From Candidatus Berkelbacteria bacterium (GTDB lineage: Bacteria; Patescibacteriota; UBA1384; 2-12-FULL-50-11), in NCBI GenBank assembly GCA_016432625.1, contig CP066697.1, positions 392,409-456,408 of the forward strand: DNA of 64,000 nucleotides, written 5' to 3'. Made by a program: the position numbers and the translations under genes. Below, in pieces: positions 13,209 to 62,572 of the stretch; position 1 is the stretch's first letter, and every line of letters starts with the position of its first letter. The notes below the pieces were generated by a model. The model saw only the letters and a program-made list of their open reading frames with translations, was not told the origin of the DNA and searched no databases.

Positions 13209-13504
13209 CGACTTTATCCCTCGCGACCCTCACCGAGTCCCCCGTCAATTCTGGCGGGGGCTCATTTTTTTATCTAATTTCGGAGTTCGTTCGGTTTTAC
13301 ACTTTTCCACAGTTTCTTGGTTAAGTTTCGGCTTGTGTTTGGGGATAAGCCGCGAGTGAACACAGCGGCGCACCACAGTGAACGGGAAAAGTATAATTAC
13401 CCCCCCCCTCGACTTTTCACCGTGAACGAGGACTTCCTTATATAACTGCCGCCTTATCAATAAGGTTTGAAAGAGGGCCGCCAGATTGGCGGCCCGTCCA
13501 TGGG

Positions 13505-13741
13505 TTACTCACTAACGACATGAGGAGGAATCTGCCAGACAATCATGCCTCTTAGATCAGCCGCCTCGAGCGCTTGCTTGAGCGTGGTCGCGTTGAGCTC
13601 GCGATACAGCGCCATACGCCACTTCTCGATCTCCTTTTCTTCAAGGCCGAGGGATTGGGCGATTGCCTTGTCGCTTTGGCCGTTGAAGATCGCCGCGTCA
13701 ATTACTCGATTTTCGTTCATATACCACCTCCGTGTGGTCAA
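13505..13741 (-). CDS. Small HTH protein (sigma-70 region-4-like), hypothetical
   Basis: NGQSDKAIAQSLGLEEKEIEKWRMAL resembles a region-4/LuxR-type HTH. Confidence 0.35.
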   Translation of the reverse strand: MTTRRWYMNENRVIDAAIFNGQSDKAIAQSLGLEEKEIEKWRMALYRELNATTLKQALEAADLRGMIVWQIPPHVVSE

Positions 13742-13837
13742 CCTATTTTAACAGATTAGCCGCCTCAAGAGGCGGCTATCGTGGGTAGGCTCGGCGTTGA
13801 GCCATTTGCGCGTCATCCTCGACACGCGGTACGTGAT

Positions 13838-14215
13838 CTAGCGGGCGAACGGTTCGAACGGGATTAAACCCAACCGAGTCGCTGCTCGGAAGGCTTGAAC
13901 CCTGTTGTGCACCTGAAGCTTGTCGTAGATATTCGCCAAGTGGAAATCTACGGTTCGCTTAGATACATAGAGAGCATCGGCAGCCTCCTTGCTGCTATTG
14001 CCCTGAGCGATTAGGCTCAGAACTTCGATCTCCCGTCTGGTCAGCCTGACACCTCTTCTGCAAGGGTCAGGCTTGGAGACGAAAGGGCTTTCACCCTCGT
14101 CCCTCTGGAACGAGCCGTTTTGGCTAGGAACACGATTCCCGGCAGGCGCAAAGCCAACCGGACGAGCTTGAAGTGCAGTAATCAAACAATCCCTCCTGGG
14201 TATTCTCCGCGGCAT
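13838..14215 (-). CDS. LuxR/GerE-family HTH transcriptional regulator
   Basis: LTRREIEVLSLIAQGNSSKEAADALYVSKRTVDFHLANIYDKL is the canonical LuxR C-terminal HTH. Confidence 0.8.
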   Translation of the reverse strand: MPRRIPRRDCLITALQARPVGFAPAGNRVPSQNGSFQRDEGESPFVSKPDPCRRGVRLTRREIEVLSLIAQGNSSKEAADALYVSKRTVDFHLANIYDKLQVHNRVQAFRAATRLGLIPFEPFAR

Positions 14216-14442
14216 CTAGCACACGGATTCTCTAGTTTATAGCAACTAACCATTAGTGTCCAGTAGCCAAATCCCCACATTTTTGCCGTGGCTTAAAAGC
14301 GAACAACCCTTTGCAGGAACTTTTCGGAGGATGCCAGCATGGTCTGTGAGCGAAGCTCACAGTGGCATCCGAGAATAAAAGCTACGAGTCCGCTGGGACG
14401 AGGAGCGGTTCCGAAAAGGTTGTTGTGAGCGCACCTTGACTG

Positions 14443-14458
14443 TTCGGTTTTTGTTCGC
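14443..14458 (+). promoter_or_regulatory. LexA-box-like operator (GTTC-N7-GTTC) in the promoter of the 84-aa gene
   Basis: ccTTGACtGTTCGGTTTTTGTTCGCcatatta. The 16-mer TTCGGTTTTTGTTCGC is identical at three sites, each between a TTGAC -35 and an AT-rich -10. Confidence 0.65.
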
Positions 14459-14482
14459 CATATTAAGAAAAAGGAGGGTAGT

Positions 14483-14737
14483 ATGGAAGAAGTTAAAACG
14501 ACTCTGGGGGAACCAGTTAAAGTTATCGCCAGTTTCTCGCCGCATAAGTTCAAGATTCACTTTTTCAACTGGAAGGAACGAACTTATCCAGTCGAGTCGA
14601 TGAATTTATTCCATATTGAGCGTGATGGCAGTAAGAAGCTTTATCATTTTGCCGTTAGCAGCCGCGGCAATTCTTATGAACTGGTTTTCGATCCAGTAAC
14701 TCTCGACTGGGTTTTGGCTGATATGGTCCAAGTATAA
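14483..14737 (+). CDS. Hypothetical 84-aa protein with a LexA box in its promoter
   Basis: AGGAGG RBS. LexA-box promoter ~25 nt upstream. No TM segment and no known motif. Confidence 0.5.
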   Translation: MEEVKTTLGEPVKVIASFSPHKFKIHFFNWKERTYPVESMNLFHIERDGSKKLYHFAVSSRGNSYELVFDPVTLDWVLADMVQV

Positions 14738-14790
14738 AACTGTGCCCGGCGAAAACGCCGGGCACTTTGACCAGGAGGAAGGGGCGGTTA

Positions 14791-15768
14791 TTAGCCGACC
14801 GCGACCCTCTCTGGTGGGGGAGGAAGCACCTCAGGATGAAGACGGGCCAACTCCTGGAAGAAATTCTGGCGCATACGCGCCAAGGTGTCCTTGAGGGCGT
14901 AACGCTCCAGACGCTTGAGGGCATGGAGAAGCTCATCAGCCTCCACCCGGCCGTGCTGCTTCATTAGCAGCTGTCCGGAACCAAGGAGTAAGGCGCCATG
15001 AACATCATCGTGATAGATGCGTTCTTTGACTCGGTGGAACGCGTTTTGCGCCATACCGACCATCAACTTACTCCAGAGCTCACTTGTGACTTCCTGCTTG
15101 ATCACGTTGTTGAGCGCCCGTATTGAGGTTTCTGCTGTTTTGAGTAGGGTGTTGCCGATCTCGCCATTGCGGACCACCAGCACCTGGATACCGCCGCTAA
15201 AGGCGACCTCAGGTTCGGCGATCCTGACGGTACGGCCACGTCCGTTCCCCTTAAGGAAGTCGTAGATCTTGGCCGCCTCTGGATGAAGCTTGTGAGTTTC
15301 ACCACCAATCGAGTGGATGCCGTAGATCGGGTACAGACTATTGTAAGCCGCCCGGTGATAGCTGCCGCAGAGCAGTGCCCCTATGGCAACCTGAAACCAA
15401 CCGATCTCGGCGTGCGCCCCGGCATCGTTCAAGATGAAGTGCTTACCCTTCTCCACGGTCGGTAGCACCGCCGCCAGCGGCGAGAGCAAACGCTCTTGCT
15501 TACCGGTTTCAGGATTGATCAGCCAGATCGGCTCGATACCGCGGGCAATGGCGACCAAGTCGCCGCTTGTTGCCGCTGATAAAGCGCCAGAGGCGTTTTT
15601 GGGGTCGTGACGCGGCAGCAATAGCCGCCGTTTGATCTCCGGCAGGGATTCAACACCCTCGACGTTCATTCCTTCCTTGACTGCCAGCTCCACGGCGGCT
15701 TTGGCAGTAGTAGGGATATGGGTGTCGTGGCCAGAACCCTTAGTGTGGACGAGTAGTTTTGGTCTCAT
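14791..15768 (-). CDS. plsX: Phosphate acyltransferase PlsX
   Basis: [10 protein letters not shown] matches [32 protein letters not shown] matches [34 protein letters not shown] matches DGFTGNVLLKTLEG. Confidence 0.7.
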   Translation of the reverse strand: [325 protein letters not shown]

Positions 15769-15858
15769 AATTGCTGTCTCCGGTTTCCAGAACTGGAAAG
15801 TACGTTGGACAATTATACAACGAATCTTGTCCGAGATTAAGATTTCCGCCTCTTGTTT

Positions 15859-15874
15859 TTCGGTTTTTGTTCGC
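15859..15874 (+). promoter_or_regulatory. LexA-box-like operator in the divergent plsX/dinB intergenic region
   Basis: ctcTTGTTTTTCGGTTTTTGTTCGCcttagatagaagtATG (TTTC-N7-GTTC, one mismatch in the first half-site). Confidence 0.6.
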
Positions 15875-15887
15875 CTTAGATAGAAGT

Positions 15888-17150
15888 ATGCGCAAGATAC
15901 TTCACGTCGACATGAACAGTTACTTTGCGACGATGGAGCAGCAAGCTTACCCCAATTTGCGAGGGCTACCGATCGGCGTGGCTGGCAAGGGTAGGGGAGA
16001 GCGAACAGTCGTAACCGGCGCCTCGATTGAGGCTAAGCGTTACGGCGTTAAATCAGGTATGTCCACGTGGGAAGCCTTGAGGCTTTGTCCCGGGCTAATA
16101 ATCGTTCCAGCGTGTTATGACCGCTACATTTTCTCCTCAAAACGGATTTTCGCTCTGCTCGAACGTCTCAGCCCAACAATTGATGTTTTCTCGATCGACG
16201 AAGCGTTTGCGGACCTGGGGGAGGATATAACCTGGGAAGAAGCTGCCAAACTTGCCCAGCAGTTTAAAGCACTAATAAAAAGCCATATCGGGTCGTGGGT
16301 AACCTGTTCGATCGGTATCTCTTACGGTAAAACACTCGCCAAACTCGCCTCGGAGCTAAAAAAACCTGACGGCCTGACCCTTGTCCGTCCTGAAGATTTT
16401 GCGGCTATCGCCGAAAAGACTGCCATTGAGGAGCTCTGCGGTATCGGCTATCGTTTGCGGCCTAGATTGAATCAGATGGGTATTTTCACGATCAAAGAGC
16501 TGGGGGATATGCCAAAAAATATGCTACTAGAAGCTTTCGGAGAGTTTACCGGCACTTGGCTGCATAATATTGGCAACGGCATCGACAACAATCTTTTGCG
16601 TTCGTTTCGCTCCTTGCCTCAGGAAAAATCAGTCGGCCACTCTTACACCTTGCCACAAGACGTTCATACCTTAGGAGAAGCTAAAAAGGTTTTATTGCTG
16701 CTCAGCGAGCGAGTCGGCGTCCGTTTGCGCCGCAAAGGCTTGATCGCCCGGGGTGTGGCGGTTTATCTGCGTTTTTACGACCGAAGCGGTTGGTCTAAAA
16801 GTGCCTTGCAAAAAAGCTTTTTTAATGACGGACGAGAGATCTACCAAGCCGCCGAGCAATTGCTCGAAATATTCAACAACTCCATCAAACCGGTTCGCCT
16901 CGTCGCCGTGACGGCCACAAACCTGGTACAACAGACCGAAATAACCCAGTCTTTATTCACGGAGGATAAGGAGTACGAGGAGTTAATTCGAGCCGTAGAT
17001 AAGGTTAACAACCGCTACGGCGAGTTTACGGTGTTCCGGAGCAGCTTAGCGACAATCAAACGGAGGATTTTCAACTTGCCCGACGGTCGTAATAAACGGA
17101 TCTACTTGCCACAAATAACTGAAGTGAATCCGTTTACTAAACGGATCTAA
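15888..17150 (+). CDS. dinB: DNA polymerase IV (Y-family translesion polymerase DinB)
   Basis: MRKILHVDMNSYFATMEQQAYPNLRGLPIGV matches E. coli DinB MRKIIHVDMDCFFAAVE. SIDEAFADL, AKLASELKKPDG. Confidence 0.9.
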   Translation: MRKILHVDMNSYFATMEQQAYPNLRGLPIGVAGKGRGERTVVTGASIEAKRYGVKSGMSTWEALRLCPGLIIVPACYDRYIFSSKRIFALLERLSPTIDVFSIDEAFADLGEDITWEEAAKLAQQFKALIKSHIGSWVTCSIGISYGKTLAKLASELKKPDGLTLVRPEDFAAIAEKTAIEELCGIGYRLRPRLNQMGIFTIKELGDMPKNMLLEAFGEFTGTWLHNIGNGIDNNLLRSFRSLPQEKSVGHSYTLPQDVHTLGEAKKVLLLLSERVGVRLRRKGLIARGVAVYLRFYDRSGWSKSALQKSFFNDGREIYQAAEQLLEIFNNSIKPVRLVAVTATNLVQQTEITQSLFTEDKEYEELIRAVDKVNNRYGEFTVFRSSLATIKRRIFNLPDGRNKRIYLPQITEVNPFTKRI

Positions 17151-17222
17151 CCGACTACCACACCCTTTCCAAGCCACTAATTGCGCGGTATGCTACCCCC
17201 TGCCTGAAAAGGAGTTCCTTCT

Positions 17223-17849
17223 ATGCCGACTGATACTGAACTTGCTCGTCCATCAGATTCCGCCAAGGTTTTGAAGATCGTGCGGAACACGCCCGGTCAA
17301 AAGTACCTCATTGGCGAAGTTAACAACCTGTTTGTTGCGGCAGCGGTTCGCGAGAGCGACGGCCAGCTGCTCATCTGCCAGATGCCACACGAGGCCAACA
17401 ACAACTTGCGAGGTGCCCCGGTGCTGCCAGCTGTACGCACCGACACACCCGCACTGAACGGCGCCGCACTGCTCGCGGCACACCTCAACGACTCTTTCGG
17501 TCTTGAGGCATTTCCGATCCAACCGATCGGACACCACATCAGAACTGGCCAATGCCGGTTCCACCCTGAGGGCCCGCGCGACGTCTTTCACACCTTCTGG
17601 ATCTGCGTGATCGAGGGGGACCAGGACATCCGAAGGCTCTACGGCTACCAGTGGGCGAACTTTTGCCGTCCAAAAGACTTTCGAACGCTCGTGCACGCCG
17701 GTGGTGTTCCAACAGAGGGCATTCTCGACCAGATCGAGTTCAACAACCTTGGCGTCTCCGCCGACCGTCACCCCTTCGACGTTCTAAGCAACATCGCCAA
17801 ATACGCCGAATCCATCCACGACGGCGAGCTACTCAAGTCTATCTTGTAG
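17223..17849 (+). CDS. Hypothetical protein (208 aa), locally GC-rich
   Basis: AAAAGGAG RBS. ~60% GC against ~48% background. No recognisable motif. Lies between dinB and lexA. Confidence 0.45.
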   Translation: MPTDTELARPSDSAKVLKIVRNTPGQKYLIGEVNNLFVAAAVRESDGQLLICQMPHEANNNLRGAPVLPAVRTDTPALNGAALLAAHLNDSFGLEAFPIQPIGHHIRTGQCRFHPEGPRDVFHTFWICVIEGDQDIRRLYGYQWANFCRPKDFRTLVHAGGVPTEGILDQIEFNNLGVSADRHPFDVLSNIAKYAESIHDGELLKSIL

Positions 17850-17960
17850 GGCTCGTCCCAACTTCACGAAAGCCGCCTGGAATTATCCAAGCGGCTTTCT
17901 CCGCATTCAGATCGCCAACAGATACTTGTTGTCGAGGTACATGTAAGTGCTATTGACACG

Positions 17961-17976
17961 TTCGGTTTTTGTTCGC
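17961..17976 (+). promoter_or_regulatory. LexA-box-like operator in the lexA promoter (autoregulation)
   Basis: ctaTTGACacGTTCGGTTTTTGTTCGCtacgttagtactaacATG. Confidence 0.65.
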
Positions 17977-17991
17977 TACGTTAGTACTAAC

Positions 17992-18597
17992 ATGTTAACA
18001 CCAAAGCAAAAGCAGATCTTAGATTTTATTGAGAGTTTTATTGATGAGAACGGGTACTCACCAAGTTATCGAGAGATCGCTGAACATTTCGGCTTCTCTT
18101 CGGTCGCGACCGTCGCTGAACATGTCGAGAATTTACGATTAAAAGGCTACTTGTCCAGCGAAGCCGGTTATCGTTCACTCCAGGTAAAAGAAGTCGCCGT
18201 TGAGCCAGACTCAGGTTTTGACGTTTTGAATATTCCGCTTATGGGCGCGATTCAAGCCGGAAAGCCGATTGAGGCGATCCGGACCAGCGAAACTCTAGAG
18301 ATTCCCCGCGATATGATGGCACGAAACGTTTTTGCCCTGAGGGTAAAAGGTGACTCGATGATCGATGATGGTATTTTAGACGGTGACTATGTTGTAGTTG
18401 AGCCGTGCCAGAGCCCCAAAAATGGTGACATCATTGTCGCCTTGATAGATAAAGACGATGTAACGCTAAAGCGCTTTTATCGGGAAAAGGATCACATACG
18501 TTTGCAGCCAGCCAACAAGAAGTACCAGCCAATTCGAGTTAAAAAAGTAACGATTCAAGGTAAGGTGCGAGGTGTCATTCGAAAATTTCGCGGTTAA
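17992..18597 (+). CDS. lexA: LexA repressor (S24 peptidase)
   Basis: N-terminal winged HTH (GYSPSYREIAEHFG). Ala-Gly cleavage site (AIQAGKP). GDSMIDDGILDGDYVVV (Ser) and TLKRFYRE (Lys) catalytic dyad. ATG at 17992 inside a longer ORF. Confidence 0.9.
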   Translation: MLTPKQKQILDFIESFIDENGYSPSYREIAEHFGFSSVATVAEHVENLRLKGYLSSEAGYRSLQVKEVAVEPDSGFDVLNIPLMGAIQAGKPIEAIRTSETLEIPRDMMARNVFALRVKGDSMIDDGILDGDYVVVEPCQSPKNGDIIVALIDKDDVTLKRFYREKDHIRLQPANKKYQPIRVKKVTIQGKVRGVIRKFRG

Positions 18598-30850: not shown

Positions 30851-31057
30851 TAATTTCGAGTGATCGAGCGAACGCGAGAATCAGACGCAAACTTCGCTAA
30901 CTCCCGAACTTAAGCCGTACAATATCCGAACAAACGCTAAAATTGAACCATATGTAGCTATTGCCCTTGACAGCCGTACGTTTAGACGTCAAAAGTGGAA
31001 GAGTCGGCACTAAAGATGCCCGCAAGGGGGCGAACAATTTTGTTTTAAAGGGGGAAG

Positions 31058-34000
31058 ATGGCCAAACAGAAAGACAAGTTTCATGATATTGCGCTGAAGC
31101 CAGTGGAGATTTCGGTTGATCTGTCAGACAGAGAGGGTAAGCCAAGCAAAGGCCTCAAACTTAACCGCCACTTTACCAAGAAGGGTAAAGATATATACGC
31201 CGACATTACCTGGGATAAGCGGACTTCCATCATTACTGACGAAAAGGGTAACCTAATCTCCCAGATTAACGACCTCGAGACACCAAGCACCTGGAGTCAA
31301 CTCGCGACCGACATCTTAGCTTATAAGTATTTACGCAAAGCCGGCGTGCCTACTCCCGAGGGCCGCGAAACCAGCGCCAAGCAGGCCGTTTACCGCATAG
31401 CACACAGCTTTGCCGATTTCGGCGAGAAGTTTGGTTATTTCGCTTCCAAAGACGACCGTATGACTTTTGAGGAAGAGTTGAGTTATCTGTTAATCACTCA
31501 GCGAGCCGCCTTTAACTCTCCTGTGTGGTTCAATGTCGGCCTGCATCATCAATACGGCATTCAAGGGCAGGGTGGGGGATTCTATTGGAATTTCGCCGAA
31601 GAGAAAGTGCTCGAAACTGAAACCGCTTATCGCAACCCTCAATGTTCGGCCTGCTTTATCTTGGCCGTTAGAGACTCCTTACCAGACATTTTTGAACTGA
31701 TTAAGACCGAATCGCATATCTTTAAGTATGGTTCCGGCTCCGGTGCCAACTTCGCCCCTTTACGCAGCCGCTTCGAGAAGCTCTCCGGCGGCGGTAAATC
31801 ATCCGGCATGATGAGTTTCCTCAAGGTCTTCGACCGAGCGGCCGACTCTGTTAAGAGTGGCGGTACGACTCGCCGTGCAGCCAAGATGGTTGTTGTCGAT
31901 CTGGATCACCCAGAGATTGAGGACTTCATTAACTGGAAGGTTCGTGAGGAACGCAAAGTCCAAGCAATGATTGAGGCCGGTTATCCATCTGATTTTAACG
32001 GTGAGGCCTACGGCACTGTTTCTGGCCAAAATTCTAATAACTCAGTGCGCGTGACGGATGAGTTTATGAAAGCCGTCGAAAATGATGGTGAGTGGTCAAC
32101 TCGCACTCGCACTAACGGCGACATCTACAAAACCTACAAGGCCCGTGAACTAATGGATATGATCGCTAAAGCCGCTTGGCAGTGCGCCGATCCAGGAATG
32201 CAGTTCGACACTACCGTTAATGAGTGGCATACCTGCCCCAATACTAACCGTATTAACGCCTCAAACCCGTGTAGTGAGTATATGTTCCTCGATGACTCGG
32301 CCTGTAACCTAGCTTCAATTAACGTTGCGAAATTTGTTGATGAAGCTGGTAATTTCGACATTGCCGGTTATCGTCACGCCTGCCGCACGGTCTTTATCGG
32401 TCAAGAAATTGCCGTTGATTTCTCGGCGTACCCAACTAAAGCCATTGCCCAAAATAGTCACGACTACCGCCCGCTAGGACTAGGCTATGCCAACCTCGGC
32501 ACCCTACTGATGCTACGAGGCGTCCCGTACGACTCTGAACAAGGCCGAGCTATCGCTGGGGCCTTAACGGCTATAATGTGCGGCCACGCCTACAAAACTA
32601 GCGCCGAGATCGCCGCCGTCAAAGGGCCGTTCAACGGTTACGCAAAAAATCGTGCCCCAATGTTAAACGTTATGCGTAAACACCGGGCAGCTGCTTACCG
32701 GCTTGACGAAAAAGCTTGTCCAAACGATATCTTAGAAGCCGCCAGGCAAGATTGGGACGAAGCCGTGGCGCTTGGCGAGCAATTCGGCTACCGCAACGCC
32801 CAAGCTACAGTCATCGCGCCGACGGGAACAATCGGCCTACTAATGGACTGCGATACTACCGGCATCGAACCCGACTTCGCCCTAGTTAAATATAAAAAGC
32901 TCGCCGGCGGTGGCGGTATGAAAATTGTTAACAACGCCGTAACTCGCGCTTTGGCAAATCTTGGTTACACGCCCGAGCAACAGAAAGACATCCTGACTTA
33001 CGCTCTCGGCAACGGCACCCTAAACAGCGAGACGCCGATTAATCGTTCGTCCCTGCTCGCTAAAGGATTAACTGAGGACGAAATTGCTGCTGTGGAGCGT
33101 AATTTGCCAGCTGCTTTTGATATCCGACACTCTTTCAACCGCTACGTTGTTGGAGACGCAGCAATGGAGCGCCTTGGCGTTACCAGTGAAGATGAGGCTG
33201 ATCCAGGATTTTCTCTTCTAAATAAACTTGGTTTCAGCGAGATTGAGATCGAGCAAACAAACCAAGTTATCTGTGGCACACAGATGCTTGAAGGTGCGCC
33301 CCATCTTAAAGAAGAGCATTATCAAGTGTTCGACTGCGCCAATAAATGCGGCGCTCACGGTACTCGTTTCTTGAGCCCAATGTCACACGTTAAGATGATG
33401 GCCGCTGTTCAGCCGTTTATTTCCGGTGCCATCTCTAAAACCATCAACATGCCGCATGAAGCCACCGTGGAGGAAGTGAAGGACGTTTACATGCAATCGT
33501 GGAAGCTCGGCGTCAAGGCCATGGCCCTGTACCGCGACGGCTCTAAACTTAGCCAGCCGCTGAACGTTCAAAAGAAAAAAGACGAGGACAAGCCCGAGGC
33601 AGTTGAGACGCCCGCGGCTGGTATCTTTGTGCCACGGCGCCGCCGTTTGCCTGACGAGCGCAAAGCCGTGACACATAAATTCAACGTTGGTGGCCACGAA
33701 GGCTATCTAACGCTCGGATTCTTCGAGGACGGCACCCTGGGCGAGATCTTCATTACCATGTCCAAACAAGGCAGCCTTATCTCCGGGCTGATGGATGCCT
33801 GGGCCGCAACGCTATCCGTGGCGATGCAGTACGGAGTACCAGCCTCAACTTGGGTGCGTAAGTTCATGAACGCCCGGTTTGAGCCGTCTGGCTTCACTAA
33901 GAACCCTCAAATCAGGATTGCGAAGTCGATCATTGATTATGTCGCGCGTTACATTGGCTTGAAATGTTTGACGCCAGAGGAGCAGTACGAACTTGGCCTA

Positions 34001-34285
34001 ATTAACGAAGCGCCTAATCTTGTAAGTGACAGCGCTCCCAGCGTCAACACTACCGCACCCGTAGTGGAACAGGTTACTCAAGAGGAAGCCGCACCAACCA
34101 GCGAGCCCCTAATCTCACCGGTATCAGCTCCGAGTAATCAAGCCGAGCTGCCGATCGTGGATGGGGAAAAATCTAAATCAAGTGACGCACCAATTTGTGC
34201 GAAATGTGGCAGCTTAATGCGGATGAAAACCGGCTCTTGCTACACCTGCACTAACTGCGGCAATACTTCCGGCGGCTGCGGATAG
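31058..34285 (+). CDS. nrdJ: Class II (adenosylcobalamin-dependent) ribonucleotide reductase NrdJ with a C-terminal Zn-ribbon
   Basis: NPCSEYMFLDDSACNLASIN is the class II active-site Cys/Glu region. C-terminal CAKCGSLMRMKTGSCYTCTNCG. Confidence 0.85.
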   Translation: MAKQKDKFHDIALKPVEISVDLSDREGKPSKGLKLNRHFTKKGKDIYADITWDKRTSIITDEKGNLISQINDLETPSTWSQLATDILAYKYLRKAGVPTPEGRETSAKQAVYRIAHSFADFGEKFGYFASKDDRMTFEEELSYLLITQRAAFNSPVWFNVGLHHQYGIQGQGGGFYWNFAEEKVLETETAYRNPQCSACFILAVRDSLPDIFELIKTESHIFKYGSGSGANFAPLRSRFEKLSGGGKSSGMMSFLKVFDRAADSVKSGGTTRRAAKMVVVDLDHPEIEDFINWKVREERKVQAMIEAGYPSDFNGEAYGTVSGQNSNNSVRVTDEFMKAVENDGEWSTRTRTNGDIYKTYKARELMDMIAKAAWQCADPGMQFDTTVNEWHTCPNTNRINASNPCSEYMFLDDSACNLASINVAKFVDEAGNFDIAGYRHACRTVFIGQEIAVDFSAYPTKAIAQNSHDYRPLGLGYANLGTLLMLRGVPYDSEQGRAIAGALTAIMCGHAYKTSAEIAAVKGPFNGYAKNRAPMLNVMRKHRAAAYRLDEKACPNDILEAARQDWDEAVALGEQFGYRNAQATVIAPTGTIGLLMDCDTTGIEPDFALVKYKKLAGGGGMKIVNNAVTRALANLGYTPEQQKDILTYALGNGTLNSETPINRSSLLAKGLTEDEIAAVERNLPAAFDIRHSFNRYVVGDAAMERLGVTSEDEADPGFSLLNKLGFSEIEIEQTNQVICGTQMLEGAPHLKEEHYQVFDCANKCGAHGTRFLSPMSHVKMMAAVQPFISGAISKTINMPHEATVEEVKDVYMQSWKLGVKAMALYRDGSKLSQPLNVQKKKDEDKPEAVETPAAGIFVPRRRRLPDERKAVTHKFNVGGHEGYLTLGFFEDGTLGEIFITMSKQGSLISGLMDAWAATLSVAMQYGVPASTWVRKFMNARFEPSGFTKNPQIRIAKSIIDYVARYIGLKCLTPEEQYELGLINEAPNLVSDSAPSVNTTAPVVEQVTQEEAAPTSEPLISPVSAPSNQAELPIVDGEKSKSSDAPICAKCGSLMRMKTGSCYTCTNCGNTSGGCG

Positions 34286-36402: not shown

Positions 36403-36683
36403 GTATGGTCAAACTTCTAGATTTTTGGGCAGCTTGGTGTGGTCCGTGTAAGATAATGAACCCGATTATTGAAGAGATCGAGAAAGAGTTTGTTGGCAAG
36501 ATCGTTATCGAAAAAGTTGATGTGGATGCAGCCGAGAATCAACAGAAAGTGCAGGATTACCAAGTCGGGGCAATGCCTACCTACATCATTGAGGCTAACG
36601 GGGAAGTAGTTGAACAATTCATCGGGGCGCAACCAAAATCCACTTTAGTTAAAGCTCTGAATCACGCGCTCGAAAACAACTAG
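36399..36683 (+). CDS. trxA: Thioredoxin (short form)
   Basis: WAAWCGPCK active site. 94 aa and lacks the usual first beta-strand and helix. ATGA overlap with the upstream membrane-protein gene. Confidence 0.8.
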   Translation: MSMVKLLDFWAAWCGPCKIMNPIIEEIEKEFVGKIVIEKVDVDAAENQQKVQDYQVGAMPTYIIEANGEVVEQFIGAQPKSTLVKALNHALENN

Positions 36684-39600
36684 GATAATTCTGAGAAGAT
36701 TTCACAGAGTTCGCAGCCTTGGTCAAACGAATCGCGAGCGTGGATAAATGTGTCAGCGGCAAGGATCTTTTCGTAAGTTTCTTTGACGTCTTTGGCAAGG
36801 CTGTCAATTTCGTCGTTTGTGATTCGAAAGGGTTCTTCACGGAAAGTGTGCTTGTCGTCCAGAAACTTTAGAGCGAACTCAGCGGCGTGATACGGGAAAT
36901 GCCGATCTTCGCGAGCGAGTAACGCATAAAATACTAACTGCTCTTTCAACTTGCCGTCTGATGACTTCGTCTGTCCCTCAATTTGAGAACGAGTTTTCGC
37001 CTGAGCGCCAGTCTTATAGTCGACGACCTTAACTGTTCGAGCAAGCGGATCGATAATATCAAGTCGGTCGTACTTACCGCTAACCCAAATCGAATCTAAC
37101 ATCACGTGGTGACTCGCAAAACTATACTCTACGCCGACAGGTGGTAATTCGTCTTTTGTTTTAACGTGGAGGTAGTACTCCTCAAGAAGATTTTTAGCCT
37201 GAGTAATAATTGCCGTCTTGCCGCGGAAGAACTCAAAATGCCGCGAAGCTTGTTCACAATAATTTAGTAGAGCAGTTTTAGTTGGAAGGGTTTTACGCGT
37301 TCGAAATTGTTTATAGAACAGCTCCAGAGCGCGATGCAGAATATCGCCGTAAATTAAACGCGGGTCGGGGCGGCTCGGAAAGCGTAGGACAGATTTTAAT
37401 AGATATTGTTTAGGACAGGTTTTATATGTCTCATAATCCGTGAACGTAAATGGTTTTTCTCGAATTAATTCGCGGATAACTTTCTTCTCTTCATTACGAA
37501 CGAAAACCGCTTGGTTAGGAGTAATTGCGGTAGTAAGAATTTCATTAGCCTGCGAGACGCTTGGCTCATACGACTCTCTTTCTAGGTGCGACTCAACTTC
37601 GGAGACGAACTGACTCGGTAGGACCTCACGACCCTCCTCATCGTATTTAGAGTAGCTTAAGTACAATTGATTCTTGGCGCGGGTCATCGCCACATAGAAA
37701 AGTCGGCGCTCGTCTTCAATCGGCGATTCATCCCAATCGTCTAGATTAACAATTGATCCTGGAAGCTTGATGAGCTCTCGTTTGCCGCGATCGTTCCAAG
37801 ATTTCGTACTAACGTTTGGCAGAAAAACCGTGTCAAATTCTAAGCCTTTAGCGCCATGAACGGTATTCACAAAAACCCCTTCAACTTTAGGCCCGAGGCG
37901 GTGAACTGGTAGCCGGACACGATATTGACGCAGCAAGTCTATGTAGTCCAAAAACTCTTCCAGCCCACTTCCTGGGTTTTGAATACTGAAACGTTTCGCT
38001 TCGTTGATAAATGCTTTAATGATTTCCAGGCGCTCTAAAGCGTCTCTTTGTTGACTTACTTCTTTTAGGATTCTCGAAGACGAAATGATCTCCTCAAAGA
38101 ATTCCGGCAGGCTTAGCATTCGCACCCGTTGCTGATAGTTGCCTAGCGTCTCGAGTGCTGCGCGCAACGTCTTGTTTTCTTTAGCACTAAGCGCGAGAAA
38201 ATCGATAGCCTTCTGCCACGACTTAGTTTCGTGGAAAGCACGTGCCAGACGGGCCAGAACGATAGGGGAGAGTGTGGTGATTAAATTCAGCGCTGGGGCA
38301 ACGTAGATTGGGTCACTCATATCATTAATGGCCCTTAGCAGACCAACGATCTGACGTACATCTGGCTCGTTCATTAAATTAGTGCTTTCAACGCCAGCTA
38401 CTGAGATGCCACTTTTTGCCGCAAATTCGCGGAAACTCTTTACTTCGTCGTTACGCCTAAGGAGTACAGCGACTTCTTGAGGGGGCAGATTTTTATCGAA
38501 GCGCTTTTTAATTTGCGCTACTATCCACGCGTATTGCGCTTCCGCCGAGGCAGTATTTATAAGTTTCAGTTCAGACTTATCGTTACTACGTGTTGGTGAA
38601 AGTATCGTCTTAAGTTCTGGCAAGAACCTAGTTAGTTGATAATTATTACGGTTAATTAACGCCGTGGACGCATCTAGGATTCGTTTAGCGCTACGATAAT
38701 TTTCCGTTAGGCTGATAACTTTTAGCGCTGGGTATTTCCTAACAAAGCGAAGCATGTTGGCAACGGAAGCGCCCTGAAATCGATAGATAGCTTGCTTGTC
38801 ATCGCCGACAACACAAAGGTTGGGGTTGGGGAAAAATTCGGCTAGTGATTCGACGAGTGAATTTTGGGCGTTGTTAGTATCTTGATACTCATCAACCAAA
38901 AAGTACTGAAATCGTTCCTGGTAGTACGCTATGACGTCCGCTTCCTCCTGCAGGCCCTGTACGGCAAAGATTATCATATCCTCATAGTCATAGAGGTTTC
39001 GTCTTTTTAATTCCTTCTGATAGGCAGCGTAAACTCGTGATAGCTCAACGTTCAATGCTTCAGCGCGCTTTATAGCCTGACGCTGCAATTCAGTGATTCT
39101 CTTCGCGGTTAACTTACTCTTAGCTTCCTTGCGGGCAAGTTGAGCAAGTGTTTCAGGTAAAACGTTTTCTTGTTTGGCCTTACGGATTGCTTCGGCGATG
39201 CTCGGAACGTGAAAGGTCGGTGCCCGAACTGGTCGAAGGGCAATTAGCGAGGTATCGTGCTCAACAATACGGTGGATAATCTGCAGGCGTTCCAATTCGC
39301 CGACCTGCATCGCTTCAACGGCAAAACCGAAGACGTAGGGGAATGTGGTGATGACTTCATTCGCAAACCCATGGAAGGTCGCCACCGTGACTTGGTAAGC
39401 GTCTGAACCAATAATCTTTTCTAACCGACTCCTTAAGGCCGTGACGCCCGCTTCAGTAAAGGTGAGCGCTAGGATATTGCGGGCATTAAGTTGGGTCTGG
39501 TTAAGAATCTCAGCAATACGCATTGCCACGACCTGGGTTTTGCCGGTTCCCGGGCCGGCCACGACCATAACCGGGCCTTCGATCGTCCGAACGGCTTTTT

Positions 39601-39700
39601 TTTGCGCCGGATTAAGACGGGCGAATTCGCGTTCGAAAACCTGGTTCTTTTTTGCTGTATTCATCAGGGTCAGACTACCGAGTTTGCCTAGTAATGCCAA
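36680..39700 (-). CDS. UvrD/AddA-like SF1 DNA helicase fused to a C-terminal PD-(D/E)XK (RecB-family) nuclease
   Basis: Motif I VVAGPGTGKTQV, motif II FLVDEYQDTN. C-terminal RLDIIDP...VVDYKTG nuclease motif and a CELCEI cysteine pair. Confidence 0.75.
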   Translation of the reverse strand: MALLGKLGSLTLMNTAKKNQVFEREFARLNPAQKKAVRTIEGPVMVVAGPGTGKTQVVAMRIAEILNQTQLNARNILALTFTEAGVTALRSRLEKIIGSDAYQVTVATFHGFANEVITTFPYVFGFAVEAMQVGELERLQIIHRIVEHDTSLIALRPVRAPTFHVPSIAEAIRKAKQENVLPETLAQLARKEAKSKLTAKRITELQRQAIKRAEALNVELSRVYAAYQKELKRRNLYDYEDMIIFAVQGLQEEADVIAYYQERFQYFLVDEYQDTNNAQNSLVESLAEFFPNPNLCVVGDDKQAIYRFQGASVANMLRFVRKYPALKVISLTENYRSAKRILDASTALINRNNYQLTRFLPELKTILSPTRSNDKSELKLINTASAEAQYAWIVAQIKKRFDKNLPPQEVAVLLRRNDEVKSFREFAAKSGISVAGVESTNLMNEPDVRQIVGLLRAINDMSDPIYVAPALNLITTLSPIVLARLARAFHETKSWQKAIDFLALSAKENKTLRAALETLGNYQQRVRMLSLPEFFEEIISSSRILKEVSQQRDALERLEIIKAFINEAKRFSIQNPGSGLEEFLDYIDLLRQYRVRLPVHRLGPKVEGVFVNTVHGAKGLEFDTVFLPNVSTKSWNDRGKRELIKLPGSIVNLDDWDESPIEDERRLFYVAMTRAKNQLYLSYSKYDEEGREVLPSQFVSEVESHLERESYEPSVSQANEILTTAITPNQAVFVRNEEKKVIRELIREKPFTFTDYETYKTCPKQYLLKSVLRFPSRPDPRLIYGDILHRALELFYKQFRTRKTLPTKTALLNYCEQASRHFEFFRGKTAIITQAKNLLEEYYLHVKTKDELPPVGVEYSFASHHVMLDSIWVSGKYDRLDIIDPLARTVKVVDYKTGAQAKTRSQIEGQTKSSDGKLKEQLVFYALLAREDRHFPYHAAEFALKFLDDKHTFREEPFRITNDEIDSLAKDVKETYEKILAADTFIHARDSFDQGCELCEIFSELS

Positions 39701-44868: not shown

Positions 44869-47838
44869 TTATAATTCGTCAATTGGCTGCAGGCCTGAAT
44901 CAGTTGGTTTAGATGTCGCTTTACTCTCGTTCGTCAGGCCTAGGGTCTCGGCTTGATCCCAGGTTATTAAGCGATCTTGGGCACTTTGTTCGATGTCTCC
45001 CCTACTCCAATCATCGCCGCCAGCTTTTTTCTGCTCGCTCTCCCCTATTTCCTGGGCGATGTGCTTCTCGATAATTGGGGCTGTTTCTTCAGCAATAACG
45101 CCTTCGCGAACAGGCGGAGTAACCACAACGTCCCGCACCTGTTCAACTGGTGAGGGGTCGACGTCGTTTTCAACCTGTCCATCAGGTTCATTTTTTAGCT
45201 CACCGCTGCCAGTGACGGCGTACCAATTGCGACTGAAACGGTCTTTTAGAATCTCAATCTTCGAGCCTTTTGGTAGTGACGGCGTCGTCTCTTGCTCGGG
45301 CTTTTTGGCGACATTAGTTGGTTCTGCGTTAGCAAAACCCTTGTCCTGAGGTGTCACATTACCCGGACCGGCCAACGTCACGGTACTACCTTCCCCGGCC
45401 GCCTTGCCAGCTTCAACCGCGCTCAAGTCAATCGGCGCTGACCACTCGGCGATATAATCTTCAACGTCTGTTTTAGACATACTGAATTGCTCGCGGCTGG
45501 ATTCTACCACCTGGCTCACTACGTCCGTTTTATCCGCCGGCGGCGGTAAAGTGTTGGCGGAAAATGCCGGCGCCGTAACGCCGTCGATCGCCATCTTAAT
45601 ATAGATCTGCCTATTTGGTAGATTAACTAAATCGTTGACGTCAAATACCGGCTCAAACTCACTCTTCATTGCCTCGGCGTCGTTCGATCCGACACGGAAC
45701 GAGACCATTGTTCCGACGTTGCCAAAAACCGCATCGCGCACTGTCTCCGGCATCTGAGCGATATATTGGTTGACCATGACAAGATTGAGGCGATACTTGC
45801 GCGCTTCACTGAGGATTGTGGCGAAAGAATCCGTGGCAAAGTTCTGAAACTCATCAACATACAAATAGAAGTCTCGCCGATCGGCCTCGGCAATACGTGT
45901 TCGTCCCATCGCCGCTAACTGAATCTTTGTTACTAACATCGAACCAAGCAAGGCCGAGTTATCCTCGCCGATTTTTCCGGTCGACAAATCCGCCAGTAAA
46001 ATCTTGCCGTTATTCATGACTTCATCCATACGCATTGTTGATTTCGGTTGACCAACAATATTACGGATGGTTGAGCTTGAGAGAAATTGACCGACTTTAT
46101 TTTGAATCGGCGCAATCGCTTCTTGGCGGAATTTTGGTTCGTATTTTTCGTACTCATTAACAAAGAAGTCGCGAATCACCGGGTCCTTCACTTCATTAAT
46201 AACTAAGCGGCGGTAAGAATTATCCGTTAGGATCCGCATCACGCTAAGTAGCGTCGAGTTGGGATACTCGAGCACTGCGAGAATTGAGTTGCGCAGGATG
46301 TATTCAAGACGCGGCCCCCAAGATTCGCCGAAGATTTTTTTGAAGATACCGACGACGCCGGAAGCGATGACGTTCTTCATTTCTGGGTTGTTGTCGAAGT
46401 TCTCCAGGACGTTAAAGCCGACCGGAAACTCGTGATCAGCCGGGTTAAAGTAAACCACGTCGGGGATTCTATCGGCGGGCAAGAAGGCTAATACGTGATC
46501 AATAAGCTCGCCGTGCGGATCAACAACCGCCACGCCTCGCCCTTCCCGGATATCATCGTAAATCATATTCTCGATAAATGTGGATTTTCCTGTACCCGTT
46601 TTACCGATAATGTAAGCATGCAGCCTCCGGTCATGTCGTTTAATGCCGAATTTTGTGATGTTATTACGGAAATTAGTCTGGGCAAGCACTGTTAAGTCGT
46701 CGGCTGGCACGCTACCGAGAACAGGCAAGTTAGAGGGCGGTTCCCCTTTCTTCGCTCCAGCCCAAGCAATGGTTGGCGTCGATACAGTTTCAGAAGGAAA
46801 GTGATAAAGCGTTGCGAGCTCCGTAATGTTGAGAATAATGTCCCTATCCCCCATCGCCCGGTGTTTAAATAGGTCCAGGACGCTGCGGTCGGTAACCATG
46901 TCTTTAACGATGAAGGCGTTTAGATTGAGCGTATTGAACTGCTTATAGGCCCCGACGACTTGTTCTAGCTTGGCTTTAGCAACATGTTCTTCACTAGCCG
47001 CGGCAAGAATACGGACATTAGCCTCGAACCCAAGCTTGGTGATTTTTTCCTCAATCGCTTTTATCGCCTGCTGCTCTGGCCCGCCGAGTTCGTTGTCCTT
47101 CTTGTCTTCCTTCTTTTCCTCCCCGCCCCCCTCGGGCGAGATGATTTGCTTAAAGAAGCCGACAAATAATTCTTTGCTTTCATTTACGAGTAGCTCAGTG
47201 ACACCCTTTGGTTTTTTAGGTGGTTCTTTGAGGTTCTTCACTTCATCACGCCCTAAGTCCTGCCAGTCATCATCAGCAGGACGAACAATGGTTTGGATCC
47301 AAACTTCTTCATCACCCGTTAAGCTGCTTAAGACTCCCGTGGTCGTAGCGAGCGGATCAACTTCGAAGTTAAGAAACGTTTTAATTGGGAAAGCTGTCGG
47401 CCGCTTTAAAGTTAACTCAGTGGCAACGAACCGCTTCTCTTCCGGCAGAGTAACGTAGTCTTCCTCCGGCCCGATTTCTTTGATTTCAATATTAGGGTAT
47501 TGGGCAAAGATCTGACTAACAACAAAATCTTTTAGATTAGCCGGAACGTAGACAAAGAATGTAATGCTCTGCCGGCGCGAGACAATCTCCAGGCTGATAC
47601 GTGGTTGCTCGGTAGCACCCTCCCTAAAAATTCCGTGTAGGGCAGCAAAGAATTGCTCTGCCGCCTCAGGCTTAGCAGTGTTATTCTTAGGTACCGAAAG
47701 TGAGAGTAAGGTATATTCATCGAGACCGCCAGGCCAGCTTTCCTTGGAGCTGCTGCCTTTACTTGTCCGTTTCCAAAGCCATACGGCTCCAACAATCAGT
47801 AAAGCGCTGAAGACAAGATTAATCACCACAAACGTCAT
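44869..47838 (-). CDS. Membrane-anchored P-loop ATPase, TraG/VirD4/TrwB coupling-protein-like (paralog 1, 989 aa) with a long acidic disordered tail
   Basis: N-terminal TM. Walker A HAYIIGKTGTGKST. VAVVDPHGELID and VVYFNPADHEFPVGFNVLE match the coupling-protein DPKGE / fnP..NPL pattern. Walker B FYLYVDEFQNF. Confidence 0.55.
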   Translation of the reverse strand: MTFVVINLVFSALLIVGAVWLWKRTSKGSSSKESWPGGLDEYTLLSLSVPKNNTAKPEAAEQFFAALHGIFREGATEQPRISLEIVSRRQSITFFVYVPANLKDFVVSQIFAQYPNIEIKEIGPEEDYVTLPEEKRFVATELTLKRPTAFPIKTFLNFEVDPLATTTGVLSSLTGDEEVWIQTIVRPADDDWQDLGRDEVKNLKEPPKKPKGVTELLVNESKELFVGFFKQIISPEGGGEEKKEDKKDNELGGPEQQAIKAIEEKITKLGFEANVRILAAASEEHVAKAKLEQVVGAYKQFNTLNLNAFIVKDMVTDRSVLDLFKHRAMGDRDIILNITELATLYHFPSETVSTPTIAWAGAKKGEPPSNLPVLGSVPADDLTVLAQTNFRNNITKFGIKRHDRRLHAYIIGKTGTGKSTFIENMIYDDIREGRGVAVVDPHGELIDHVLAFLPADRIPDVVYFNPADHEFPVGFNVLENFDNNPEMKNVIASGVVGIFKKIFGESWGPRLEYILRNSILAVLEYPNSTLLSVMRILTDNSYRRLVINEVKDPVIRDFFVNEYEKYEPKFRQEAIAPIQNKVGQFLSSSTIRNIVGQPKSTMRMDEVMNNGKILLADLSTGKIGEDNSALLGSMLVTKIQLAAMGRTRIAEADRRDFYLYVDEFQNFATDSFATILSEARKYRLNLVMVNQYIAQMPETVRDAVFGNVGTMVSFRVGSNDAEAMKSEFEPVFDVNDLVNLPNRQIYIKMAIDGVTAPAFSANTLPPPADKTDVVSQVVESSREQFSMSKTDVEDYIAEWSAPIDLSAVEAGKAAGEGSTVTLAGPGNVTPQDKGFANAEPTNVAKKPEQETTPSLPKGSKIEILKDRFSRNWYAVTGSGELKNEPDGQVENDVDPSPVEQVRDVVVTPPVREGVIAEETAPIIEKHIAQEIGESEQKKAGGDDWSRGDIEQSAQDRLITWDQAETLGLTNESKATSKPTDSGLQPIDEL

Positions 47839-50258: not shown

Positions 50259-50259
50259 A

Positions 50260-50553
50260 TTAGGCACCGGTATCCATGACCTGCCCAACGCGATCCTCTA
50301 AATCAGACAGGCTTGCTACTGCAATATTGGCGTCGATTTCGTTTTCCAAAAATGGGGTAACAGCCTCAGTATTAACCGTCGGCTCAGGTCCGTCCTTATA
50401 TTCCACACTCCTGGGAGCAGGTCCAACTTCAGCCGGTACGTAACCACTAACAGCTTCAGGCGGCTTTGCTTCGGACACAACAGGCTTAACCTCACCAGGT
50501 GAGAATGATTCATTAGACGTTCTTAACTCAAAGCGTTCCCCCTCGCGCTGCAT
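50260..50553 (-). CDS. Small acidic Pro/Glu-rich protein (97 aa), first gene of the ATPase operon
   Basis: Low-complexity sequence. Abuts the ATPase start. Confidence 0.35.
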   Translation of the reverse strand: MQREGERFELRTSNESFSPGEVKPVVSEAKPPEAVSGYVPAEVGPAPRSVEYKDGPEPTVNTEAVTPFLENEIDANIAVASLSDLEDRVGQVMDTGA

Positions 50554-62106: not shown

Positions 62107-62418
62107 TTACATACCTGGGAAGTTGAAGTCTTTTAAGATCGGCTGTAAACGCGCGGCGGACTCGCTCTGCGCTTTGGCCATCGCTTGGCCGATCGTGTCT
62201 TTAAGGTTGCTTTCAAGCTGATTTTTATTGCCAGCGTCGAGCGCCTCATCGGCGATAGTTATCTCGACTATTTTCATCTCACCGTTCACGATGACGCCAA
62301 CAGTACCGTCAGTGGAGCGGGCTTCGATCTCTAAATTTTTGAGTTGTTTCTGTACATCCTTTGCCTTTTTCTGCAATTGGTACATGTCTTTCATTTGTCC
62401 GAAACTTGGTAATGCCAT
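62107..62418 (-). CDS. ybaB: Nucleoid-associated protein YbaB/EbfC
   Basis: MALPSFGQMKDMYQLQKKAKDVQKQL...GLPFDPGM-like C-terminus (FNFPGM). Confidence 0.85.
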   Translation of the reverse strand: MALPSFGQMKDMYQLQKKAKDVQKQLKNLEIEARSTDGTVGVIVNGEMKIVEITIADEALDAGNKNQLESNLKDTIGQAMAKAQSESAARLQPILKDFNFPGM

Positions 62419-62485: not shown

Positions 62486-62572
62486 CTAAGCTTCCGTTCG
62501 GCAGTTGTCGATTGTCCACCGGACATTCGACATTTGCTGCCTCATCATCTGTCCGAAACTTGGTAATGCCAT
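62486..62572 (-). other. 28-codon uORF formed by a duplicate of the ybaB 5' end
   Basis: The 23-mer tgtccgaaacttggtaatgccat occurs at 62396-62418 (the ybaB start) and again at 62550-62572. The upstream copy encodes MALPSFGQMMRQQMSNVRWTIDNCRTEA*. Confidence 0.3.

Follow-up and report, generated by a model that had tools for sequence, protein, structure and literature searches.

The question raised by this locus is why a single 16-nucleotide sequence, TTCGGTTTTTGTTCGC, recurs unchanged in three promoters of a 64-kb stretch of Candidatus Berkelbacteria DNA (contig CP066697.1, positions 392,409 to 456,408; the whole stretch is hereafter called the window), and which regulator would be expected to read it. 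We consider it very probable that the three 16-mers are SOS boxes, serving as predicted operators for the LexA repressor encoded within the same window at 17992-18597, and that they belong to the direct-repeat box type of the Patescibacteria. An earlier note on this DNA had read them as LexA-box-like operators that define an SOS regulon, which is supported by comparative genomics, and had assigned them to the GTTC-N7-GTTC type of the Alphaproteobacteria, which is not borne out. The host is a Patescibacterium (candidate phyla radiation; CPR): its LexA, the 84-aa product of an open reading frame (ORF) called orf84, and its ribonucleotide reductase (RNR) are 100% identical to proteins of a Candidatus Berkelbacteria metagenome-assembled genome, and the nearest loci bear the labels Patescibacteria, Saccharibacteria or Berkelbacteria.

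A sequence search finds the three exact copies where they had been reported, all on the plus strand (14443-14458, 15859-15874 and 17961-17976), and no additional match in the window, even at three mismatches. TTCGGTTTTTGTTCGC is the sole strand-collapsed 16-mer with at least three occurrences in the 64 kb; 3e-5 copies are expected from base composition, and two further copies would arise by chance with a probability of approximately 5e-10. The 45-nt flanks of the copies are related at the random level only (18-38% identity), and a recent segmental duplication is therefore not indicated; indeed, the restriction of conservation to the operator itself argues for selection over recent duplication. 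The genes that the earlier note had placed behind the copies are the correct ones, although in the wrong order: the copy at 14443 precedes orf84, that at 15859 precedes dinB, and that at 17961 precedes lexA. The claim that every copy is flanked by -35 and -10 hexamers holds when these are read directly in the sequence (Table 1), as does the claim of direct repeats in place of the Gram-positive palindrome, with both halves in the same orientation. The proposed spelling GTTC-N7-GTTC fits two of the three sites in its strict form, the dinB site beginning with TTTC (TTTC...GTTC). In the window's lineage the operator is spelled GTTCGG-TTTTT-GTTCG, and the degenerate GTTC-N7-GTTC pattern in itself is not enriched in the window (2 observed, 2.5 expected).

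Table 1. Features of the window that bear on the predicted LexA operators; positions are counted from the first letter of the window.
Feature	Coordinates	Strand	Description
Orphan conserved element	13278..13349	+	TTTCGGAGTTCGTTCGG LexA-like box; DnaA-box-like 9-mers; TTGGTT (-35-like); second box TTTCGGCTTGTGTTTGG; GGATAAG
orf84 promoter	14436..14464	+	-35 TTGACT 14436-14441; predicted operator GTTCGGTTTTTGTTCGC 14442-14458; -10 CATATT 14459-14464
orf84	14483..14737	+	84-aa all-beta protein, no family assigned; Shine-Dalgarno AAAGGAGGG
dinB promoter	15853..15882	+	-35-like TTGTTT 15853-15858; predicted operator TTTCGGTTTTTGTTCGC 15858-15874; -10-like TTAGAT/TAGATA 15876-15882
dinB	15888..17150	+	Y-family (Pol IV-like) translesion DNA polymerase; Pfam IMS, IMS_C, IMS_HHH_1
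lexA promoter	17953..17982	+	-35 TTGACA 17953-17958; predicted operator GTTCGGTTTTTGTTCGC 17960-17976; -10 TACGTT 17977-17982
lexA	17992..18597	+	SOS repressor; winged helix-turn-helix and S24 self-cleaving domain; Pfam LexA_DNA_bind, Peptidase_S24
Candidate fourth LexA site	30904..30931	-	GTTCGG-ATATT-GTACGG-CTTAA-GTTCGG; three pentamers 11 bp apart
Class II (B12-dependent) RNR	31058..34285	+	Pfam Ribonuc_red_lgC, Ribonuc_red_2_N, TSCPD; candidate regulon member

The sites were scored with a position weight matrix (PWM) built on 52 lexA-promoter sites from 80 related lexA loci, which had been fetched from species-representative genomes; on shuffled sequence, this matrix yields about 1.25 matches of score 12 or more per window. 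The lexA operator scores 26.6, the highest value in the window, followed by the operators of orf84 (20.3) and dinB (19.0). Further matches of 14.8-16.3 at 18087 (within lexA), 42262 (within secD) and 9935 all fall in coding sequence and are treated here as possible chance matches. The lexA promoter (TTGACA-18-TACGTT) carries its operator 16 nt ahead of the ATG at 17992, as would be required for autoregulation, and the same architecture recurs in the lexA promoters of relatives. Likewise, of 12 close relatives, 11 have an operator in the same place before their orf84 homologue, and in the remaining one (L004) the copy is degenerate. The orf84 promoter is also matched by a generic sigma-70 scan (TTGACT-17-CATATT).

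The protein expected to bind these sites is readily recognized. The lexA product meets the TIGR00498 equivalog model at 199.7 bits (cut-off 111) and can be aligned over its full length to experimental LexA structures (PDB LexA chains, E 3e-33). Besides its helix-turn-helix, it contains the Ala89-Gly90 cleavage site and the Ser122/Lys160 dyad, and A89, G90, S122 and K160 are invariant columns of the alignment, all of which is consistent with a cognate LexA.

Comparative genomics supports this reading well. About 50 of about 65 Patescibacteria-type lexA genes have the same type of site at the same promoter position, and among the 80 loci the Patescibacteria-type lexA promoters almost always hold a direct repeat inside TTGACA...TAnnnT, as in TTGACACGTTCGGTTTTTGTTCGCTACGGT, TTGACATCTTCGGTTATTTTTCGGTATTAT and CTTCGGTAAATTTTCGGTATATAAT; the direct-repeat motif is thus conserved upstream of lexA across the Patescibacteria loci, whereas Firmicutes loci of the same set carry CGAAC-N4-GTTYG instead. 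In the matrix, TTCG holds 1.5-1.8 bits per base in both repeats and the next G holds 0.76-0.94 bits, while the base preceding TTCG holds just 0.17 bits (G 42%, C 31%). Since the information resides in TTCG and the G that follows, what is conserved is TTCGG, repeated every 11 bp, and not GTTC. The GTTC form is specific to the window's lineage, and it goes with minor changes in the recognition helix.

A search for the core, TTCGG-NN-TTTGTTCG, on both strands of 856 kb and with no promoter required, returned 31 matches. TTGAC precedes 30 of these, the first downstream ORF is lexA, orf84 or dinB in 27, and lexA lies further downstream in two more (L006 and L008). According to this search, the motif is neither common outside promoters nor missing before lexA in relatives, either of which would have spoken against the earlier note. 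The recognition helix S-x-A/S-T-V-H/A-x-H is common to all users of the TTCGG operator, and it is unlike the alphaproteobacterial helix.

The genes behind the operator have been surveyed in a metagenome scan with TTGAC-N0-3-KTTCGGTTTTTGTTCG, which matched at least 120 loci; all counts given here are among the matches listed. The first gene downstream in the 120 matches is lexA in 54, orf84 in nine, a gene for a radical-SAM/HhH repair protein in seven and dinB in four, followed by HNH (three), recA, rarA/MgsA, RlmE and DinB_2-family genes (two each). In ten more loci, a 23S-rRNA-IVP four-helix-bundle gene is inserted ahead of lexA or dinB, and the two RlmE loci run on into orf84-like and dinB genes. 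The prevalence of such functions downstream indicates that the operator marks DNA-damage genes. In the window these are, besides lexA, dinB and orf84; in relatives they include the orf84-dinB pair, recA, rarA and the radical-SAM repair gene. Of the further regulon members that had been predicted, recA and uvrA do not occur in the 64-kb window, and the helicase-nuclease gene at 36680-39700 has no upstream site that we could find.

From these features, a conventional SOS circuit may be proposed. Each predicted operator presents the TTCGG pentamer twice, head-to-tail and with a period of 11 bp, or one helical turn, and a LexA dimer would bind both pentamers. As the spacer from -35 to -10 is entirely taken up by the operator, bound LexA is proposed to shut out RNA polymerase. 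Upon DNA damage, RecA filaments would stimulate self-cleavage of LexA at Ala89-Gly90 by the Ser122/Lys160 dyad, and lexA, the translesion polymerase gene dinB and orf84 would be derepressed.

Several points weigh against the identification of the 16-mers as operators of this LexA. The assignment of LexA as the probable binder comes from co-occurrence, in an uncultured organism. In addition, recA and the remainder of the genome lie outside the window, such that the inducer and the full regulon are out of view. Finally, the generic sigma-70 scan accepts the orf84 promoter only, and the -10 hexamers of dinB and lexA are weak (3/6).

Among the alternatives, the one that survives best, and which we still judge very improbable, is that these are true alphaproteobacterial GTTC-N7-GTTC boxes read by a LexA related to, or laterally acquired from, the alphaproteobacterial lineage. 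According to the pertinent passages of PMC4951493, which cites Fernandez de Henestrosa 1998 and Erill 2004, GTTC-N7-GTTC is the alphaproteobacterial box. The likeness is real: both kinds of operator are head-to-tail repeats with an 11-bp period and a TTC core that overlap the promoter, and two of the three window sites fit the alphaproteobacterial box literally. Our comparison rests on one alphaproteobacterial LexA, from a Sphingomonas replicon in a plasmid collection, whose lexA operator GTTCCATATAAGTTCCGCGTCTGTTCT holds three GTTC units with an 11-bp period (GTTCC-N6-GTTCC-N6-GTTCT). There, GTTC is followed by C or T and never by G, whereas the window operator has a conserved G at this position; the initial G of GTTC, for its part, is the base that is nearly uninformative across the phylum. 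The proteins diverge as well. Identity between the window LexA and the Sphingomonas protein amounts to 40% overall and to 31% in the DNA-binding domain; in that same domain, the figures for the window LexA are 37% with Bacillus and 42-62% with the LexAs of other genomes that use the TTCGG operator. The window LexA also lacks the linker insert of approximately 22 aa that is found in the Sphingomonas LexA, and its recognition helix (SSVATVAEHVENL) is unlike the alphaproteobacterial one (SKSGVHRLISAL; Bacillus, SSSSTVHGHLARL). As such, the 11-bp direct repeat of the alphaproteobacterial box is present in the window, while GTTC as the conserved tetramer and a LexA of alphaproteobacterial lineage are not.

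The same alternative draws support from outside the Patescibacteria. Contigs whose LexA is labelled Terriglobales, the order of Acidobacterium capsulatum, carry TTGACATTTCGGTTTTTGTTCGC before lexA, which contains the window's 16-mer, and in a rough neighbour-joining tree the Terriglobales LexAs fall beside the alphaproteobacterial sequence. Nonetheless, the DNA-binding domain of these LexAs is also just 33% identical to the alphaproteobacterial one, and their helix is of the ATVHxH, or Patescibacteria, type. A kinship with the Alphaproteobacteria would regain ground if, among other things, an alphaproteobacterial LexA were to bind GTTCGGTTTTTGTTCG as well as its own box. To judge by its title, a 2006 paper by Mazon et al. 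(Microbiology 152:1109), which is in the reference lists of PMC7739468 and PMC4951493, reportedly described an alphaproteobacterial-like LexA box in A. capsulatum and the lateral acquisition of an alphaproteobacterial lexA, and the operator in Acidobacteriota-labelled contigs may bear on that published ‘alpha-like’ box. Overall, the window system is alphaproteobacterial-like in that its operator is repeated head-to-tail once per helical turn, yet it is not a member of the alphaproteobacterial family.

The high-GC users of the operator deserve mention in their own right. The identical operator TTGAC-(N)-TTTCGGTTTTTGTTCG has been found at the same promoter position in contigs of 60-72% G+C (e.g., L123, L173, L126, L111 and L033), and 27 of the metagenome loci among the matches listed have a G+C of at least 0.60. 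The clusters into which the LexAs of these contigs fall bear the labels Terriglobales (Acidobacteriota), Binatia and Parcubacteria SG8_24; in a genome of the Longimicrobiales, the operator is TTTCGGTCCCTGTTCGG. All of these Terriglobales, Binatia, SG8_24 and Longimicrobiales LexAs possess the ATVHxH helix.

Comparison with the Gram-positive system is instructive with regard to how such an operator may have arisen. The Gram-positive (Cheo) box, CGAAC-N4-GTTCG, is an inverted repeat with a 4-bp spacing, and Firmicutes loci and Bacillus do show this palindrome, while the window sites are direct repeats with 6 bp between the pentamers; no inverted repeat of the Gram-positive kind is seen in them. 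Even so, the Gram-positive half-site GTTCG is almost the window pentamer, overall LexA identity is 40-47%, and the recognition helices are similar (S-S/T-S-T-V-H in Firmicutes; S-V/L-A-T-V-A/H in Patescibacteria-type LexA). A pentamer and a helix that both resemble their Gram-positive counterparts suggest that the likeliest evolutionary change was in the arrangement of the half-sites, with the specificity of the LexA monomer retained.

Slightly less probable than an alphaproteobacterial origin is the possibility that the 16-mer is the operator of another regulator, such as the GerE/LuxR-type genes at 13505-14215, or an element intrinsic to the promoter spacer, its association with lexA being coincidental. 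The two LuxR-family genes do directly precede orf84, an arrangement that close relatives share. However, they occur in close relatives only, and the operator goes with lexA, including in clades with no luxR homologue nearby; the genes downstream have classical SOS functions, and the motif is absent from the other promoters of the window. Self-regulation of lexA is, moreover, a general property of LexA regulons. Finally, it is scarcely credible that the copies lack a regulatory role and merely recur by chance, or are what is left of a small element that was mobile or duplicated: although 1.2 chance matches are expected at up to three mismatches and 14 of 100 shuffles gave at least three, the copies are exact, their flanks are unrelated, their promoter positions are identical, and the retention of the motif at orthologous promoters in dozens of genomes refutes this explanation.

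The reading of the 16-mers as LexA operators of the Patescibacteria type also has a published precedent. In the relevant passages of PMC7739468, PMC8565304 and PMC4951493, LexA is said to have evolved direct-repeat recognition independently several times, with a 2017 study on Patescibacteria cited among the examples; in particular, PMC7739468 cites Sanchez-Osuna, Barbe and Erill 2017 (Environ Microbiol 19:3465-3474) for this point. As far as those passages describe it, the 2017 LexA regulon resembles that of the window in its superphylum, its direct-repeat box and its small size, centered on lexA and translesion synthesis. The motif class has thus already been published for the superphylum, and the window probably adds one more example of it, for which the alphaproteobacterial label and the kinship that it implies are not supported.

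Within the proposed regulon, orf84 is the least familiar member. Its product has no match in Pfam, NCBIfam or PHROG, and the AlphaFold2 model is a confident all-beta meander (pLDDT 94) for which no relative was found among PDB structures. Just 18 close homologues exist in a large protein database. More remote ones are found repeatedly ahead of dinB, with the operator or lexA on their other side. The gene order in close relatives is orf84-dinB-lexA, with orf84 directly before dinB as the first gene of an orf84-dinB operon, and in a distant relative the order is lexA-orf84-dinB. We infer that orf84 is a conserved SOS partner of dinB and a candidate accessory protein of Pol IV. The dinB genes of relatives are mostly without an operator of their own, L003, L015 and L004 being the exceptions; in the window, plsX (minus strand, 14791-15768) splits orf84 from dinB, and dinB has its own copy of the operator. 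The dinB product matches the NCBIfam Pol IV models at E 3e-82, yet falls under their curated cut-offs.

Various other observations concern the expression of these genes. The dinB ATG is found some 6-7 nt past the -10 element, and the dinB mRNA is therefore probably leaderless, as is probably that of lexA. Taken together, the dinB and lexA starts lie 6-10 nt past the putative -10 and are without a Shine-Dalgarno sequence; both leaderless-like and Shine-Dalgarno-containing lexA genes occur in relatives. Upstream of dinB in several relatives (L001, L003/L015, L004, L011 and L012), a short ORF mimics the DinB N-terminus (e.g., MRKILHVD...) and ends with ATGA at the dinB start. In five folded relatives (L003/L015, L004, L009, L012 and L013), the start-codon region of dinB pairs with codons 4-8 in a hairpin of -13.6 to -21.6 kcal/mol, with z-scores of -4.9 to -7.1 in four and -3.1 in L003/L015; the stem sequences differ between genomes. 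The window's own dinB hairpin is weak (-7.7 kcal/mol; z -1.65). The short ORF and the hairpin suggest translational coupling or attenuation of dinB. The notion that the dinB of relatives is split by a 29-nt insert was rejected, given that translation in all frames yields an intact dinB after the short ORF and hairpin. Between dinB and lexA, a 208-aa ORF (17223-17849) has no match in Pfam, NCBIfam or PHROG and no counterpart in any of 200 related loci; it looks like a lineage-specific insertion, and is possibly co-transcribed with dinB.

A candidate fourth site lies in reverse orientation near the class II RNR gene (Table 1), 36 nt upstream of the RNR -35 element TTGACA (30967), and comprises two overlapping PWM matches of 14.4 and 12.9. 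Arrays of CCGAAC/CCGTAC with an 11-bp spacing are found just upstream of the RNR -35 TTGACA in four of six relatives by pattern match (L203, L204, L207 and L208); the array is degenerate in L205, and none was found in L206. In this set of relatives (L203-L208), the arrays consist of two or three reversed CCGAA/CCGTA pentamers, approximately 150-190 nt before the RNR start. The variant unit TACGG also occurs in some lexA operators, including those of L011 and L022. Since the array is reversed and lies ahead of the -35, unlike the three main sites, binding of LexA at the RNR array is plausible, not established. The 2017 study of Patescibacteria LexA may have reported regulation of the reductase. 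Between the array and the -35 lies a conserved TGAACCATATGTAGC, which we take to resemble an NrdR box.

A recurrent companion of the LexA operator in relatives is the DnaA box. A perfect DnaA-box 9-mer, TTATCCACA/TGTGGATAA, occurs at fixed offsets in the lexA promoters of relatives (L081-L200 and L016-L078), which place it some 8 nt ahead of the -35 in one arrangement and 27-29 nt past the operator in the other. In the metagenome set, 52 of the 120 matches listed contain the 9-mer; lexA accounts for 47 of these, whereas dinB and orf84 account for none, and the 9-mer is approximately 200 times as dense near the operator as elsewhere in these loci. It is lacking in the lexA promoter of the window itself. 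The orphan conserved element at 13278-13349 matches the layout of these composite lexA promoters, with their DnaA box and operator. It contains two DnaA-box-like 9-mers, TTTTACACT and TTTTCCACA (in the stretch GGTTTTACACTTTTCCACAG), and its LexA-like boxes score 16.7 and 11.2 by the PWM. The element is situated between two convergent terminators with no conserved gene downstream, and it is conserved in six relatives (L001, L003, L004, L010, L012 and L165). An Rfam scan of the window matched two tRNAs only, and the element is therefore no known RNA.

It is tempting to join these strands, although we regard the result as doubtful. In such a joint reading, the TTCGG-N6-TTCGG operator and the LexA with an ATVHxH helix would form one family that extends beyond the Patescibacteria to the Terriglobales, Longimicrobiales (Gemmatimonadota) and Binatia labels; the composite lexA promoters would place lexA under dual DnaA/LexA control; LexA would also control the class II RNR through the reversed two- or three-unit array; and the orphan element (13278-13349) would represent such a composite site standing by itself. 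The 2017 study of Patescibacteria LexA may already contain some or all of these points.

Elsewhere in the window, two further features were observed. Weak matches to TrwB/TraG-type coupling-protein domains of type IV secretion occur in two large, adjacent genes on the minus strand (44869-50288; 989 and 817 aa). A direct repeat of approximately 23 bp (62396-62418 and 62550-62572; copies 154 bp apart), which contains GCATTACCAAGTTTCGGAC on the minus strand, is located in an intergenic region of 574 bp.

Taken as a whole, the frame in which the motif is read decides what is concluded about its origin: as GTTC, it would invite kinship with the alphaproteobacterial LexA, and as TTCGG it does not. 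The core finding is an added instance of a published motif class and not a new mechanism. The coupling of DnaA boxes and LexA boxes at lexA promoters, the operator in Acidobacteriota-labelled contigs, and orf84 itself are worth following. For an uncultured bacterium with a reduced genome, the window would provide a clean and internally consistent SOS regulon, consisting of lexA, dinB, a small partner of dinB and, possibly, ribonucleotide reductase.

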